NCBI GenBank assembly: GCA_003241965.1
Contig: QBMB01000001.1
Location: 231,068 to 295,067, forward strand
Origin: Burkholderiales bacterium
Lineage (GTDB): Bacteria; Pseudomonadota; Gammaproteobacteria; Burkholderiales; Burkholderiaceae_C
Reading direction: 5' to 3'
DNA length: 64,000 bases
Below the pieces are notes generated by a model. The model was given only the letters and a program-made list of their open reading frames with translations, did not search any database and had not been told where the DNA came from. The position numbers were made by a program, and so were the translations under genes. Positions 40,754-47,654 of the stretch are shown here, piece by piece (the first letter of the stretch is position 1; each line of letters opens with the position of its first letter).

Positions 40754-42076
40754 ATGACCGCCTCAGGTAATCAAATCTTCGCGTTCTGGACGGGCTACGT
40801 TGTGGAGCAAGCCATCAACTGGTTGCTCGGGGCGAAGCAAAAGCTCGCCCGACCCAGAAACGTGCTGATGCTCCTACTGGTGGCGTCGGCTTTCGCATCC
40901 TCTTTTGTCGACGCCCAACCGGCAGCGGCACCTGGACTTGATGCGGGGAGCATCGTACCCAGGATCTCGGAAGCGGTGGACACTGCCTTGAATCGTCTGG
41001 GTGAGGGAACACTGAATGGCATGGGGGCGACGATCTCCGCGTTCTTCCTGGTTGCATTGATGGTCTGGACTTCGCTCAAGACCATGGCAGGGGGCAAGGG
41101 CCTTGGTGACCTGATTGGCGAGTGGGTGCCGATTTGGGTGTCGTTTGCCTTCGTCTACGCATTCTTGAACCAAGCCGGCGCAGCAGCGATCACGGGGACG
41201 ATGGATGCCATTGCTACCGCAATCGGGGGAGCGAACATGAGCACCTTGAGTTCAGCTATCGACGTGGTAGCTCGGCCTGTACTCGGCGCAATTATTGAAG
41301 TGGCCAAGATGCCACTGGTGTCCGATGCGGACATGTTCAGCCCGAGCACGTGGGTTCCTGCTCTGGCTGCCAACCTCGGAACTCTGATCACCAAGCTGAT
41401 CACGGTGGTTTTCCTCTTGATCTCGGCCGTCGCTGGGATGGCTACGGTGATCATGTCGTTCATCTCACTGAAACTCGTTTTGTTCTTGGCCCCGGTAATG
41501 GTCCCGTTCGTGATGTTCAAGCCGATGACCTGGCTGTTCGATTCATGGCTCAAGTTTCTCCTCGGTGCTTGCATGATGAAGATCGTTTTGGCGTTCATGC
41601 TCTTGGCTGCACAGGCAATCCTTGGAGCTATGGCGCTGGTCCAGGCGGAGATGGCGGAGGCAGCTAGGAACGTTGAGCCTTCCGCGGCAATGATTGCTGA
41701 TCTGTTTGTACACGCCATGATGATGATTTTTGCCTTGCTGAGCACGCTGCTTCTTATGCAGGTTCCGTCGATCGCCACAGGATTGCTCTCCGGAAGTGCG
41801 GGTGGCGGTGGGTTCTCTGGAATCAAGGGGCTAACGCGGTCGCCCTCAGCCGTCACATCACACGAAGCGGGCGGGAAAGCAGCTTCTGGTGCATCTAAGG
41901 CTGTGGCGGGAACGGTGAAGGGAGGTGAGGGGGCGTGGTCTGGGTACTCGGCTGGTCGTGGCCTTCAGCAGAGCGATCCCGGGGATCGCAAAGGCATTCA
42001 AGGTAAAGCCTACCAAGCGATGTACAACCGCGCGCGCGCAGGAACCCATGGACCTATGGTTCCCAAGGGGCGGTAA
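40754..42076 (+). CDS. VirB6/TrbL-like polytopic membrane protein
   Basis: Many TMs, LAPVMVPFVMFKPMTWLFDSWL, QVPSIATGLLSG, Gly-rich tail. Confidence 0.88.
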   Translation: MTASGNQIFAFWTGYVVEQAINWLLGAKQKLARPRNVLMLLLVASAFASSFVDAQPAAAPGLDAGSIVPRISEAVDTALNRLGEGTLNGMGATISAFFLVALMVWTSLKTMAGGKGLGDLIGEWVPIWVSFAFVYAFLNQAGAAAITGTMDAIATAIGGANMSTLSSAIDVVARPVLGAIIEVAKMPLVSDADMFSPSTWVPALAANLGTLITKLITVVFLLISAVAGMATVIMSFISLKLVLFLAPVMVPFVMFKPMTWLFDSWLKFLLGACMMKIVLAFMLLAAQAILGAMALVQAEMAEAARNVEPSAAMIADLFVHAMMMIFALLSTLLLMQVPSIATGLLSGSAGGGGFSGIKGLTRSPSAVTSHEAGGKAASGASKAVAGTVKGGEGAWSGYSAGRGLQQSDPGDRKGIQGKAYQAMYNRARAGTHGPMVPKGR

Positions 42077-42144
42077 AAAAAGATGCGGCTTGCCTCTTGA
42101 TAACCTCTCGACCGCTGATAGTCTGATAGTCAGAGAGGTTTCAA

Positions 42145-44103
42145 ATGCACATGAGTAGATTTATCACTGTCCCACTAGCCGTACTTTGGTTTGCTATCGC
42201 TGGCAAGGCCTTGCTTGCCTGGCTCTTCGGCGTTTCGATGGAGTTCCCCATCATTGGCGATCCTCCCATGGAGACCGCATTTGGAGCCGCTGCAGCTGCG
42301 ATAACGATCGGGGTTTCGATGTTGCACATCGTCACGGTATGGCTCCTGCGTCGCAACTGGCTTGGGGAGACACTATTTGTATCTTCCTACATCGGCATCA
42401 TTGGCGCCGGACTTGGCTACGGGTTCTGGTGGATGAGTGAGTCGACTGGAGTCATCGGGCATGCCTTCTTCATCGGCATGCTCTTGGTTTGTGGCCTGGT
42501 CATGGCTGGTTTCAAGTCTGGTCTGCTTTTTGCGACCGAGAGAACACGCATGCGCTCAATGGGTGCAAACCAGACTGGATCTGACGTTCAAGCTGACGTC
42601 GCGAGGGCAACCCATCCCAAAACCTCCTTCAAGGACATCTTCGGAAACTCTGATATCAAGGTTCGCCTGAAGGATGCTGCGGAGGCCATCGTCGCTCCCC
42701 GCACGGAAGGGAAGCAGATTCGCAACGGTATTCTTCTCAGTGGTGAGCCAGGAAACGGCAAGACCGTTTTTGCTGAGGCGTTGGCGGGCGAGTTGAAGCT
42801 CCCGTTCCTTCAGCTTTCGTACTCGGACGTGGCCAGCCAGTGGGTTGGCGAGAAGACCTCGCGCATCAACGCGGCGTTCGCACAGGCGCGCCGTCAACAG
42901 CCTTGTGTGCTGTTCATTGATGAGGTGGACAGCTTCTTGGAGTCACGTGACAGCGGCCGCAATGATGGAACGAAGGAAGACCGTGATGTGGTAAATGCGT
43001 TGCTCACGTTGATGGTGGACATCCGCAAGGAAAAGGTCATCCTGATTGCTGCAACCAACCACATCGATCGTTTGGACGGCGCTGGCATCCGTGAAGGTCG
43101 CTTTGACTTCAAGGTGGAGATCACGCCACCCGACCGCGAAGCACGGGTCGGGCTGCTGACACACGGCCTCAAGACTCAACTACCCACGTTCAACGTTGAT
43201 GCCGCCGTTGTAGAGGCTGTGGCGCGGCGCTGGAATGGCTTCTCGGTCAAGCGCATTCTGGCTGTAACAGAAGAACTTCCTTCCTATCTCGCCCGCGAAA
43301 CCAAGACCACGATCGCGTACGAGGACTTCATGGGCGCGCTGCGGATGCTGCAAGGTCGCAAGGGCTCAACGCCCGAGAACGTCAAGCCGATCGCTGAACT
43401 GGTGCTGTCACCCGCCACTCGCGAAATGTTGGACCTGATCGTCGGACGGATGGCTGATCCCGAGCACACAGAGAGCCACGGTGGCACGTTGCCCACAGGC
43501 GTCCTGTTCTTTGGCCCACCAGGCACTGGTAAGACCGCGACCGCCAAGGCGCTCGCCAAGGAGATCGACTGGGCATTCCTGCCTGCCACTGGCGCGGATC
43601 TGGCCCGCGACCCCAAAGCGCTGGAGAAGCTGTACGCAAAGGCGAAGGAACTCCGGCCCTGCGTCATCTTTGTGGATGAGGCCGACGAGTTGCTCAAGAG
43701 CCGCGACTATTCTCCCAACACCGAGTCGACGAACAAGCTCCTGACGCTCATGGATGGTGTCAACGACCGTGTCAAAGATGTGGTGTGGGTAGCCGCGACC
43801 AACAACCCGGAGCAGATCGACGCTGCACTCTTGCGTGGCGGGCGCTTCACCGAAAAGGTGCTGTTCGAAAGGCCATCGGCAGAAGGGTTGGCCGCTTATC
43901 TTGAGGGTTGGTTCACGTCGCGGAAAGTGGCGCTCGAATCAGGCCTCACCTCAGCATCGGTTGCAGAAATGGTGGGTAGCGAGAGCATTGCCAACGCTGA
44001 GGCGTTGGTGCAGGCCGCTCTCAACCGGGCAATCTCACGACGCTCGGCACCAGTGGTGGTGACGCGGGCCGATGTGGAGCAGGCCATGAGGATGGTTCTC
44101 TGA
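42145..44103 (+). CDS. Membrane-anchored double-ring AAA+ ATPase (Cdc48/SpoVK-like)
   Basis: About 4 N-terminal TMs; D1 GEPGNGKT/FIDEVD/REGRFD; D2 GPPGTGKT/FVDEAD/RGGRF. Confidence 0.9.
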   Translation: MHMSRFITVPLAVLWFAIAGKALLAWLFGVSMEFPIIGDPPMETAFGAAAAAITIGVSMLHIVTVWLLRRNWLGETLFVSSYIGIIGAGLGYGFWWMSESTGVIGHAFFIGMLLVCGLVMAGFKSGLLFATERTRMRSMGANQTGSDVQADVARATHPKTSFKDIFGNSDIKVRLKDAAEAIVAPRTEGKQIRNGILLSGEPGNGKTVFAEALAGELKLPFLQLSYSDVASQWVGEKTSRINAAFAQARRQQPCVLFIDEVDSFLESRDSGRNDGTKEDRDVVNALLTLMVDIRKEKVILIAATNHIDRLDGAGIREGRFDFKVEITPPDREARVGLLTHGLKTQLPTFNVDAAVVEAVARRWNGFSVKRILAVTEELPSYLARETKTTIAYEDFMGALRMLQGRKGSTPENVKPIAELVLSPATREMLDLIVGRMADPEHTESHGGTLPTGVLFFGPPGTGKTATAKALAKEIDWAFLPATGADLARDPKALEKLYAKAKELRPCVIFVDEADELLKSRDYSPNTESTNKLLTLMDGVNDRVKDVVWVAATNNPEQIDAALLRGGRFTEKVLFERPSAEGLAAYLEGWFTSRKVALESGLTSASVAEMVGSESIANAEALVQAALNRAISRRSAPVVVTRADVEQAMRMVL

Positions 44104-44702
44104 TGCTGCTTCGGGCGTGCGCTTTTGTAGTCGGCTTCCTTTGCGCATCGGCGCCGGTTTTTGGCCAGCAGGCCTCCACCTCGGCTGGGTCGTTGGGGTC
44201 GATGCCGCTGACGAACGCCACACGGTGTGTGGTCAAGGCTGCAGAGCGGCATTCGGTGAACCCGTGGGTGCTGAAGGCGATCCTCAAGGTGGAAAGCAAC
44301 TTCAAGCCAGGTGCCGTTACCCGCAACACCAACGGTTCGGTTGATCTCGGCATGGCTCAGATCAACTCCATCCATCTCAATGAACTCGCCAAGTACGGTG
44401 TCGGCGAGCAGGACTTGTTGGAGCCTTGCGTCTCGACTTATGTTGCAGCGTGGCACCTCGCCAAGCAACATCGCCGCCATGGCAACACTTGGTTCGCTGT
44501 GGGCGCTTACCACTCAGCTACGCCTTGTTTCAACACCCGGTATGTGGGATTGATCTGGAACACGCTTATCGACTGGAAGGTCGTGGAGGCACAGCGTGCC
44601 GTGGTGCAACCCTTGTCGGCGTGTCGTGCGCGTGGGAGGGCTTCACCGTCTGAGCGGCATGCAGAGGCCACACCAAATGGCCTCCTCGCGTTTGACCACT
44701 GA
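44103..44702 (+). CDS. Lytic transglycosylase (VirB1/IagB-like SLT)
   Basis: AILKVESNF (catalytic Glu), DLGMAQINS, AVGAYHS; signal peptide. Confidence 0.93.
   Translation: MLLRACAFVVGFLCASAPVFGQQASTSAGSLGSMPLTNATRCVVKAAERHSVNPWVLKAILKVESNFKPGAVTRNTNGSVDLGMAQINSIHLNELAKYGVGEQDLLEPCVSTYVAAWHLAKQHRRHGNTWFAVGAYHSATPCFNTRYVGLIWNTLIDWKVVEAQRAVVQPLSACRARGRASPSERHAEATPNGLLAFDH
44511..44702 (+). repeat. Copy 1 of the 192-bp SLT 3' end (in-frame, functional terminus)
   Basis: Encodes HSATPCF...LLAFDH*; immediately preceded by TTAC (44507-44510). Confidence 0.92.
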
Positions 44703-44706
44703 CCAC

Positions 44707-45972
44707 ATGAGCGCATCCGTGATAAAGCGAGCAGCCGTGCTGCGCCTGTACCCGAATCAACAGCAGGTATCGTCCCTGCGTCGATGGCAGGGTGGGCTGC
44801 GCTACGTCTGGAATGCGGTGCTGGACTGCGTGTTCACGTCGCGTGACATAAATGGCCGTTGGCCCACCAAGGCCGAGATGCAGGCCCTCATCGTCGGGAT
44901 GAAGAAGATGGAGGGGACCGAATGGATCGCCGACATCCCCGCGCACGCCCTGTTGACTCTGGCCGACGATCTTTACAAAGCCCTGGTCAACTGGTTCAAC
45001 AGTCTCTCGGGCAAGCGCAAAGGCCCAAAGATTTCCCGTCCCAGATTCCGAGGAAAGTTCGATCGGCAGTTCTCGGTCTACATGGTCAACCAGAACACCT
45101 CGTTCAGCGATGGCCTGGTAAGACTGCCTAAGCTCGGGCAGGTGAAGTTCCGGGCCGGCGACCTGCCTGCCGGACGCCTGTTGTCTAGTCGCGTCTACCG
45201 CGAAGCGAACAAGTGGTACATGGCCAGCATCTTCGAGTGCGATGCACCGGAGATGAATGCTGCACCCGTTGAGTGCATAGGCATCGACATGGGACTCAAG
45301 ACGTTGGCCACTGTCTTTGACGGGCAGGGCATCCGCGAGGTGCCCAAGCTGGGCGCCCTCCGCAGGCATGAGCAGAGGCTGAAGCGATACCAGCGTCGAA
45401 TGAGTCGCAGGGTCAAGGGAAGCAACCGCCGCACCAAGGCAAAGCTGGCTGTTGCACGCCTGCACCAGCGCATCGCCAACATCCGCAAGGACTACGCGCA
45501 CAAGGCCACCAGCGACATCGTAGCCAGTGCGCAGACGATCAAGGTCGAAACCCTCAACGTCAAGGGCTGGGCGAAGAACCGAAGCATTTCCAAGAGCACC
45601 GCCGACGCCAGCGTCGGGATGTTCCTGAACATGCTGCGCTACAAGGCCGCCTGGGCTGGGCGAAGCCTGGTTGAGGTTGGCCAATGGGAGCCGACCAGCA
45701 AGACCTGCAGCGACTGCGGCTCGCACAATGCAACGGTCGTTCTGGGCGTCAGTCGGTGGGTATGCCGCGCGTGCGGCGCGATCCACGACCGCGATCACAA
45801 CGCGGCAAAGAACATTTATGCGTACGGCGAGGAACGCCGAAACGTGACCGGCAACACGGTCGAAAGCGCGTGGACTGGTGGAGATCAGGCGGGAGAAATC
45901 CCGCCAGTGCCCCAGGTTGAAACGCGAATCTTGAAACGGACAGCGCGCAAGTCGAATTGCGCGCTTGCCTAA
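44707..45972 (+). CDS. tnpB: TnpB RNA-guided endonuclease (IS200/IS605 type), RuvC intact, no tnpA
   Basis: RLYPNQQQ HTH; IGIDMG (D), KVETLN (E), TSKTCSDCG...CRACG zinc finger, HDRDHNAAKNI (D). Confidence 0.95.
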   Translation: MSASVIKRAAVLRLYPNQQQVSSLRRWQGGLRYVWNAVLDCVFTSRDINGRWPTKAEMQALIVGMKKMEGTEWIADIPAHALLTLADDLYKALVNWFNSLSGKRKGPKISRPRFRGKFDRQFSVYMVNQNTSFSDGLVRLPKLGQVKFRAGDLPAGRLLSSRVYREANKWYMASIFECDAPEMNAAPVECIGIDMGLKTLATVFDGQGIREVPKLGALRRHEQRLKRYQRRMSRRVKGSNRRTKAKLAVARLHQRIANIRKDYAHKATSDIVASAQTIKVETLNVKGWAKNRSISKSTADASVGMFLNMLRYKAAWAGRSLVEVGQWEPTSKTCSDCGSHNATVVLGVSRWVCRACGAIHDRDHNAAKNIYAYGEERRNVTGNTVESAWTGGDQAGEIPPVPQVETRILKRTARKSNCALA

Positions 45973-46007
45973 AGTAAATAATTCCGCCACTCCGCCACGC
46001 CATGCTT
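45845..46007 (+). ncRNA. Putative TnpB omegaRNA scaffold plus guide (boundaries approximate)
   Basis: Hairpins GGCGGGA-GAAA-TCCCGCC (45888-45905) and AGCGCGCAA-GTCGAA-TTGCGCGCT (45942-45965) overlap the tnpB 3' end, where omegaRNAs are known to lie. Confidence 0.6.
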
Positions 46008-46179
46008 CAACACCCGGTATGTTGGGCTGGTCTGGAACACCCTCATCGACTGGAACGTGGTGCAGGCAGAGCGGGCCGTGGTGCGGCCCTTGTCGGCCTG
46101 CCGTGCGCCTGGGAAAGCCACCTCAACCGCGCGCCAAGCAACAGCCGAATCACCCAACCTCCTCGCGTTTGACCATTGA
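45988..46179 (+). pseudogene. Copy 2 of the SLT 3' end (orphan 63 codons plus stop, no start)
   Basis: Same 192-bp length and frame as copy 1; 46 of 63 aa identical by manual alignment. Confidence 0.92.
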
Positions 46180-46181
46180 AC

Positions 46182-46661
46182 ATGAACAACGACATGCAAA
46201 CCACGGGCGCGCAGCCCAGCGCCATCGGCCCGTTGCTGGCCCTGTTCGAAGCCCTTTCTGAGCAGGATCAGCGCCGCATGTATGCCGTCCTGGGTGCTAT
46301 GGTCGGCGCGGGACCCTCGCCCGCTACAGCAACGGCAGAGCCCGTCACGGCCGAAGAGGGATTGGAGGAACCCAGTGAATTGGTGGCAGTGCAGGAGTGG
46401 TACGCAGGGCTCGGGGATGTGACCGACTATGAGCGCGTATCGCTGCTCAATGAAGCCATCGACAGTGTGCAGGCAGAAGACGCAAGGGCTTTCCTTGTGG
46501 CCCGTCGCCGCGATGTCCTCGACGACAAGCCCTCTGTCTCGGTCCGTGTCGCCGTAACGCGTATCGCAGCTGAGCAGCCTATGCTCATCCTCGGAGCTGC
46601 GGTGGGTGTCTTGCTTGCTGTGGTCAGCTTCGGATCTGGGCTATTCCGCGCCTGGTTCTAG
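46182..46661 (+). CDS. Hypothetical protein with C-terminal TM helix
   Basis: ATG 2 nt after the stop of SLT copy 2. Confidence 0.75.
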   Translation: MNNDMQTTGAQPSAIGPLLALFEALSEQDQRRMYAVLGAMVGAGPSPATATAEPVTAEEGLEEPSELVAVQEWYAGLGDVTDYERVSLLNEAIDSVQAEDARAFLVARRRDVLDDKPSVSVRVAVTRIAAEQPMLILGAAVGVLLAVVSFGSGLFRAWF

Positions 46662-46680
46662 ACCTCAAACACGCTCAACC

Positions 46681-46705
46681 AAGCCAGCATCCGCTGGCTT
46701 TTTTT
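46681..46705 (+). terminator. Intrinsic terminator
   Basis: AAGCCAGC-ATCC-GCTGGCTTTTTTT. Confidence 0.8.
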
Positions 46706-46871
46706 CGCCTGTGCGTGCCGCATTCGCTGAATGAAGGCGCAAAACACGAGGCCGGCTCGCTGCACGTTCGTGTTGAGGGGTCGAGTCCGGTGTCAACGCG
46801 GGGAAGTGGCCTAGTTGACCGGGATCGATCAACGCCCTTTCTACCTAGCATTGGTTCGGAAAGGTAGCGTC

Positions 46872-47654
46872 ATGTCACTGTTCAATCGCAAAAAGCCCGC
46901 CAAGGGCGAATCAATCTTGTCCGCAGATGATGGAGAGTCGGGCTCCCCGCGTCGCGGCAAGTCCAACCCACTTGTCGAGCTGGGTCAGCAACCCAATACG
47001 CCCCCGGCGGTTTTTGGGAAAGCAGACGCCAAGTTTGGCGAGATCTACGGCTCCGCAAAAGTGGAGGCCGCCCGCTGGTTCATCGGCGCGATGTTGGCAC
47101 TACTCCTGGCCATCGTCGCTGTGAGTTCCGTGGCGATGATTCTCCCCTTGAAGGAAGTCCGTCCATGGGTTGTCGAGATCAACCCTGCCACCGGCATCGT
47201 GAACAGACCCGTCCAGGTGGAACGGATCGACCCCAATCTCTCGGTGGTGAAAGCCGAACTCGCTCGCTGGGTGGAAGCCGTTTACACCATCGATCCGCTG
47301 CGTTCTTCCGAATTGCTGCGCTGGGCGAACAGTCGATCTGCTGACAAGGCGGTGGGCCAGTTCACTGAGTTCCGCGGGCGCGAGCGCATCTTTGAGCGGA
47401 TTCGCAACGAGCCAGAAATGGTCCGTGAGGTGAAGGTCACAGCTGTCGATGCCACGCAACGCGGCACGGCATTCATCTTCCTGACCGTCACCGAGCGCGT
47501 CGGCTCCCAAGTACCCAGCGCCGACAAGATCAAGCGGTACCGGGTGACCCTGAACTACCGCCTTACCCCCGCCACCCAGGAAGCCGAGTTGCTGGCCAAC
47601 CCGCTCGGCATCTTGGTCACCTTCTTCAGCGATGCCGAGGAGCGCGCACTGTGA
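46872..47654 (+). CDS. virB8: VirB8/TrbF
   Basis: Single TM, then LPLKEVRPWVVEINPATG; C-terminal ANPLGILVTFF. Confidence 0.9.
   Translation: MSLFNRKKPAKGESILSADDGESGSPRRGKSNPLVELGQQPNTPPAVFGKADAKFGEIYGSAKVEAARWFIGAMLALLLAIVAVSSVAMILPLKEVRPWVVEINPATGIVNRPVQVERIDPNLSVVKAELARWVEAVYTIDPLRSSELLRWANSRSADKAVGQFTEFRGRERIFERIRNEPEMVREVKVTAVDATQRGTAFIFLTVTERVGSQVPSADKIKRYRVTLNYRLTPATQEAELLANPLGILVTFFSDAEERAL

Follow-up and report, generated by a model that had tools for sequence, protein, structure and literature searches.

How does a tnpB gene come to lie between two diverged copies of the end of a conjugation gene, and could such an arrangement act as an RNA-guided homing element? The question is raised by a locus in the 64,000-nucleotide stretch of DNA analysed here (the window), which is part of a 314-kb contig. 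All features of the window described below are on the forward (+) strand. The T4SS operon around the SLT and tnpB genes resembles operons of Hydrogenophaga and Polaromonas plasmids, and we infer that the contig is a conjugative plasmid of the Hydrogenophaga type. The locus recurs identically in one Logan assembly, and with 5 SNPs in 11.3 kb in a second, separate one, which rules out an assembly artefact. Across all assemblies searched, the cassette is confined to one near-clonal plasmid lineage. The element was not found in PLSDB plasmids or in 400 genomes of the host family, and within the genus it is present in 1 of 130; SLT was not found in viral contigs.

The SLT gene (44103..44702) encodes a VirB1-like lytic transglycosylase of 199 aa (PF01464), and its length and position are those of empty alleles; the initial annotation was right to regard it as restored, and the restored gene is a chimera. 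The two in-frame copies of 192 nt are also as that annotation described them (46/63 aa and 148/192 nt identical), with the first four differences synonymous and located at positions 6, 9, 15, and 18; the flanks of tnpB match each other with a BLAST E of about 2e-40. Copy 2 (45987..46179, of which 45988-46179 are the 192 nt matched by copy 1) is identical to the gene end of the empty alleles at 192–193 of 193 nucleotides (193/193 for L259, 192/193 for L255). In these alleles, present on 8 contigs (about three distinct alleles), SLT is followed directly by a 159-aa gene, which is located at 46182..46661 in the window. As had been anticipated, copy 2 is the original 3′ end of SLT; it is now an orphan. 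Copy 1 (44511..44702, delimited by copy-to-copy alignment) is the 3′ portion of a longer foreign tract.

The 5′ part of the gene (44103..44374) is of resident type, with 91.5–94.5% identity to L255 and L259, comparable to the 93% between these two alleles in the same part. Downstream of ~44375, identity to the empty alleles is 76–77%. Since the divergence starts near 44375 (change point 44375, range 44329–44387, 2dLL 25–41), the foreign tract (44375..44702) comprises ~330 bp, and is 23.5% divergent from the empty alleles. It took the place of codons ~91–136, the left target-site duplication (TSD), the left inverted repeat, and the transposase. Foreign sequence had been thought to begin at the His codon by the motif, but its actual start is ~135 nt upstream, and the 135 nt upstream of the insertion site already contain 33–34 differences, chiefly synonymous (22 versus 6 codons). 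Because the SLT 5′ part is 90–96% alike across all allele types, the left boundary of the import could be further upstream. Import of the whole SLT gene is less likely, as the 5′ part and the AAA tail are 92–97% like the empty alleles. Tandem duplication with divergence in place is ruled out by the lack of mutations in copy 2 and by a foreign tract that reaches further upstream than the duplicated part. The donor allele of the tract was not found; two candidates show 80–83% identity, the best 83% over copy 1.

A foreign in-frame 3′ end is thus combined with a displaced native end identical to that of relatives. This anatomy fits an established, dedicated homing cassette with a recoded gene end that starts at the target-adjacent motif (TAM) and spreads through SLT alleles, it matches fungal endonuclease elements whose C-termini are foreign (PMC3630166), and the parent family appears able to spread at a fixed site without a transposase (see below). 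Such a cassette is nevertheless very improbable here, given that the tract begins ~135 nt before the motif and the element is not of the IS605 family. Moreover, a copy-1-type end (at least 55 of the 63 residues of copy 1) is present in 0 of 52 SLT homologues, against 20 of 52 with an empty copy-2-type end. The cassette proposed in the initial annotation to be spreading is found in one lineage only, not in several diverged host alleles. The annotation had also suggested a search for gene-end duplications at other tnpB loci; long flanking duplications are absent at every other examined locus of the family.

The tnpB gene (44707..45972, 421 aa) begins 4 nt past the SLT stop. Its product has the HTH, RuvC, and C4 zinc finger regions (PF12323, PF01385, and PF07282), and the RuvC residues Asp194, Glu281, and Asp363, already recognized as intact, are invariant in 44 homologues. 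It scores 274 bits against NF040570 (cut-off 100) and falls below the IS200- and IS607-specific cut-offs. The assignment to IS605 had to be abandoned. The window TnpB is 82–89% identical to TnpBs of IS1595 elements, and homologues of this class are present at many unrelated sites, where nearly all end in ..AGTAAATAATTCCG and differ in the flanks beyond. From this shared end followed by unrelated flanks, the right end of the window element is placed at 45986, with CCACTCCG as the TSD; the flank and guide start at 45987 (C-CACTCCG), one base earlier than initially claimed. The right terminal inverted repeat (45969..45986, ending AATTCCG) is found at more than 30 loci with unrelated flanks and is the inverse of the left ends; it fits the terminal CGGnnTT that we take to be typical of the ISNha5 subgroup of IS1595. 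Intact relatives measure 2.25 kb. Between their left and right inverted repeats lie the gene for a 310-aa IS1595 transposase and tnpB, whose start the transposase gene overlaps. The transposase of these relatives (86% identical DNA) scores 170–182 bits against NF033547 (cut-off 75), terminal inverted repeats with 8-bp TSDs (exact or 7/8) occur at 13 family sites, and the coupling of transposase and tnpB persists to TnpBs of about 39% identity (L176 and L311). Membership in IS200/IS605 is ruled out, as the relatives carry a DDE transposase instead of a Y1 (HUH) TnpA. The IS605 end rules, by which inverted repeats and a TSD are lacking and a 4–5 nt motif such as TTAC directly precedes the insertion, do not apply either, the empty alleles reading CGTA|C. 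In the window, the left inverted repeat present in relatives is deleted, and no IS1595 transposase exists in the window or the genome, in line with the earlier remark that no transposase is left. Judged by these sequence comparisons, the copy in the window derives from an IS1595–TnpB element by deletion. The statement that the duplicated gene end is not a TSD holds for the 192 bp as a whole, but not for the first 8 bp of copy 2, which are the TSD of the element: the right copy CCACTCCG equals the empty site, and the left position, inside the foreign tract, reads CCACTCAG.

Several other forms of the element were observed. Minimal, tnpB-only forms with both ends measure 1320 bp (L008), 1387 bp (L020), and 1291 bp (L032). 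A hybrid at L011:1400-2856 has an IS1595-type tnpB after the stub of another, IS605-like tnpB, ends in TCAA rather than TTCCG, and has its pseudoknot loop changed to match; it may represent a swap to IS605-type ends. At L016:2028 and L176:90, left repeats are flanked by an 8-mer unlike the right flank, nonetheless with TA before it, and these are probably recombinants between two element copies. Two further independent insertions are found in the T4SS operon of related plasmids, one just past SLT (L018/L023:2027-4280) and one between dtrJ-like and virB11 genes (L008:3957-5277). Another insertion (L291:3780-3800), present in many assemblies, lies where a sensor kinase gene of a two-component operon begins.

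At the left side of tnpB, the SLT stop is fused to the tnpB start through a short microhomology (TGACCACATG, 44700..44709), as seen by comparison with intact elements and donor-like SLT ends. Intact elements have TGACCGCATG at this position (the transposase end), and donor-like SLT alleles terminate TGACC-ATG; the join TGACCACATG fits a putative microhomology between a donor-type SLT end and the transposase end of the element. A family tnpB at L174:2990-3003 is fused behind a phage gene at CATG with loss of the left end, as in the window junction; that contig stops at the right end of the element.

The same end state, with the same predicted activity, could have arisen without a microhomology join in the window plasmid if a donor plasmid with a left-truncated tnpB behind its own SLT had exchanged DNA with a plasmid carrying the element in SLT, through one crossover in SLT and one inside tnpB. 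Such a donor is made conceivable by L018/L023, a more distant plasmid with the full element just past its SLT stop, and by L008, where an operon of the same type carries another. However, the L018 site is 26 nt beyond the stop and retains the left end, a donor of the required type was not found, and tnpB shows no mosaicism relative to ten relatives (a weak test). We consider this route improbable.

A history of insertion followed by repair with a diverged allele is well supported by the comparisons, and the events would be as follows. A tnpB-bearing element of the IS1595 family entered SLT at GCGTA^CCACTCCG on a conjugative plasmid of the Hydrogenophaga type, with duplication of 8 bp; comparison with the empty alleles, where the site reads GGTGCGTA CCACTCCG, shows this step. 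A ~330-bp SLT piece from a diverged related plasmid then came in, presumably by homologous recombination near 44375 on the left and by a microhomology join on the right that put TGACC at the tnpB start. This would have deleted the left end and transposase, brought back the full SLT, and made tnpB the next slot of the operon. An intermediate with the full element inside SLT was not found. The backbone of this plasmid family is mosaic, with trbL–AAA segments either 60–86% or 95–99% identical. Within the window, the region 40800-43500 is 59–87% identical to L255/L259 versus 87–99% to L256, which suggests that segment exchange among plasmid types is common. As the family often swaps segments, import of the foreign tract needs no special machinery and no selection by TnpB. 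The trbL–AAA segment closest to that of the window belongs to the sister plasmid L256/L257, which carries another tnpB (396 aa) on the opposite strand before trbL (L256:5344-6534 and L257:3833-5023).

For the TnpB to act at this locus, an omegaRNA is needed that takes its guide from copy 2. A scaffold is predicted at 45817..45986 from covariation over 26 sequences; it overlaps the tnpB 3′ end and ends at the element end. A hairpin in the tnpB 3′ end (45821-45844) has a GGAA loop (45831-45834) that can pair with TTCC (45982-45985), just before the last base of the element. In the alignment, 99.4% of cells for scaffold and pseudoknot are paired, 7 of 12 pairs have two-sided changes, and 0 of 500 shuffles do as well; given that the region doubles as coding sequence and the aligned sequences share ancestry, this covariation is strong but not proof. 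One of the 26 rows (L096) is from an unpublished genome, G921. Slid controls of the end pseudoknot are 25–51% paired, and the pseudoknot itself has one two-sided change, in L011. Terminal pseudoknots of this type occur in IS605 omegaRNAs, and by this likeness the guide is predicted to start at about the TSD. No Rfam match was found for the scaffold.

The predicted guide, whose first 8 nt (45987-45994) are the right TSD CCACTCCG, covers 45987..46006 and matches the empty alleles L259 (20/20) and L255 (19/20), in both cases behind CGTA; as proposed earlier, it should be read from copy 2. The TAM had been given as TTAC, which straddles the junction; the motif before the site instead ends in TA (..CTTA or ..CGTA). 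Of 13 sites where both ends are present, 12 have TA immediately 5′ of the left TSD and only 1 has it immediately 3′ of the right TSD; two further sites, whose sequence was reconstructed from empty alleles, bring the 5′ count to 14 of 15. Family loci with such a one-sided TA are L008, L009, L017-L022, L027, L032, L033, L098, L101, L291, and L311. TnpB-free IS1595 elements have TA 5′ of the TSD at 1 of 20 sites (Fisher P about 1e-7, on a near-identical tally); as these controls are distant, with transposases only 30–39% identical, the TA may reflect a transposase preference. Whatever its cause, the TA is at the position required of a TAM, as far as the aligned sites indicate.

In the repaired gene, the predicted TAM is retained as CTTA (44506..44509), its TA fixed by the codon for Tyr136; CTTA is also found at the natural insertion sites L008 and L291. 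The adjacent self site (44510..44529) matches the predicted guide at 16 of 20 positions, with mismatches at guide positions 7, 10, 16, and 19, in agreement with the earlier view of copy 1 as a site with the motif retained and the seed mismatched. Judging from other TnpBs, two mismatches in the seed should keep it from being cut. That this end was recoded is another matter. The four mismatches are natural wobble differences, present at the same positions in the TnpB-free allele L382; adaptive recoding is unsupported, and the immunity appears borrowed, not evolved. Beyond the locus, a search of the genome for TA followed by a 14-nt match (≤1 mismatch) returned no other self targets.

With these parts, the element would be immobile for transposition while TnpB is still made together with an omegaRNA that ends at the inverted repeat. 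The guide read from copy 2 would direct cutting of resident-type empty alleles at TA + CCACTCCGCCACG. Neither copy on its own plasmid would be cut: the repaired one mismatches the guide twice in the seed and twice distally, and in front of copy 2 stands the element end in place of TA. Repair from an identical allele that kept tnpB would be cut, and a diverged donor is therefore the one expected to survive. The resulting cassette could exclude or convert sister plasmids; on paper, the locus has the anatomy of a home-and-rescue element and works as one. The initial annotation had set ordinary insertion followed by recombination against its drive model. That is indeed the likely history, but the predicted drive or defence activity is unaffected.

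Present nuclease activity of the TnpB is probable: the reading frame, catalytic residues, scaffold, and guide have all stayed intact, tnpB follows the SLT stop by 4 nt within an operon, and the event is recent, copy 2 being unmutated. If instead TnpB is silent or inactive, the same history would have left an inert relic, its self-mismatches incidental and its scar repaired under selection for conjugation. The restriction of the cassette to a single lineage agrees with this, as do mismatches that are ordinary wobble differences, the common loss of left ends in the family (L011, L028, L031, and L174), and a promoter scan that found no sigma-70-like promoter in 44000-47000. A relic is still unlikely in our view, in part because a sister cassette at lexA appears to spread without transposase. 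The best explanation overall, and one we hold to be probable, is insertion, repair by a diverged allele, and a one-off, accidental home-and-rescue cassette.

The sister cassette is a 52%-identical tnpB without left repeat. It occupies the overlap of lexA and imuA in no fewer than five diverged genomes and contigs, Steroidobacteraceae-like or gammaproteobacterial. The loci are L025, L026/L097, L029, L095, L100, and L102, with empty alleles L353-L359, in an imuABC mutagenesis operon. The lexA gene acquires new last codons with the cassette (KDVENL or KDVEM replacing KDVDAA). Divergence at fourfold sites is 0.05–0.08 for tnpB versus 0.30–0.41 for lexA and imuA (L026, L095, and L102, with L096 of genome G921 left out), so that tnpB is 5–8 times less diverged than its flanks. 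In relatives L353-L355, the empty junction has TA and a matching guide, and 4 of the 5 cassette genomes (incomplete) show no match to an IS1595 transposase. The simplest reading of these sequences is recent lateral spread at one site, and we infer that the cassette homes without a transposase. It is probably the best natural homing candidate in this analysis, and offers comparative evidence for transposase-free TnpB homing across diverged genomes.

A more far-reaching proposal, which we put forward as a tentative possibility, is that the window locus is a working natural RNA-guided home-and-rescue element: by cleaving SLT on sister plasmids where the gene is uninvaded, it would insert a copy of itself along with a resistant gene end, and conjugation would not suffer. 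It would belong to an undescribed IS1595–TnpB family whose derivatives lacking the left end work independently as RNA-guided homing endonucleases at conserved gene junctions, lexA–imuA being one example, with a very short, TA-type TAM and a one-sided site choice imposed by the DDE transposase or by TnpB. A TnpB with a 2–3 nt TAM, if true, would be of interest to tool builders. The locus suggests that one recombination step could make a transposon-borne TnpB a cost-free homing-type element; so far, such elements comprise only protein-guided endonucleases of fungal mitochondria and engineered drives.

TnpB-based drive and defence in plasmids has been demonstrated experimentally for IS605 (bioRxiv 10.1101/2025.02.20.638934). 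Homing by IS605/IS607 TnpB (10.1101/2025.02.20.638934; PMC13565253) resembles what is predicted for the window, with a guide from the right flank and cutting of TAM plus empty site, and also the benefit in plasmid invasion or defence and the residence in conserved transfer regions. Unlike these systems, the window element derives from a DDE-type IS1595 parent with inverted repeats and no Y1 transposase, its 8-bp TSD is the start of the predicted guide, and a foreign end has made the invaded gene whole again. The DDE-associated branches DDE-1 to DDE-6, as presented in the main text of PMC10691335, share a TnpB beside a DDE transposase between inverted repeats, a tnpB 3′ end near the element end, and solo tnpB derivatives. 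That main text does not name IS1595 (overlap is possible), and the passages compared describe neither a one-sided TA motif nor gene rescue. A 2026 review (PMC13565253) lists ISL2, IS630, and IS1031, without IS1595, and the family bears on a question left open there, how TnpB serves a DDE transposon with variable target duplications: from the aligned sites, the guide seems to begin with the TSD, and the TA motif is one-sided. Among the titles and abstract openings of the literature searched, there was no report of IS1595–TnpB coupling or of a link between TnpB and SLT; the same literature yielded no RNA-guided counterpart to the arrangement of a foreign gene end, a nuclease, and a native end moved aside.

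The closest parallel in architecture is provided by endonuclease ORFs of fungal mitochondria (Allomyces atp6, Glomus atp6/atp9/cox2/nad3; PMC3630166), where the 5′ part of a gene is likewise followed by a foreign in-frame 3′ end, the nuclease, and a displaced native 3′ end that relatives share unchanged. In the window, the nuclease is predicted to be RNA-guided, the displaced native end would itself be the guide, and the cassette resides in a bacterial plasmid, where it is known from one lineage. As for engineered home-and-rescue drives (e.g., PMC7968924, in the part compared here), a nuclease and guide against a useful gene are combined with a resistant replacement of the gene end, but the window locus is natural and accidental, and owes its predicted resistance to allele divergence.
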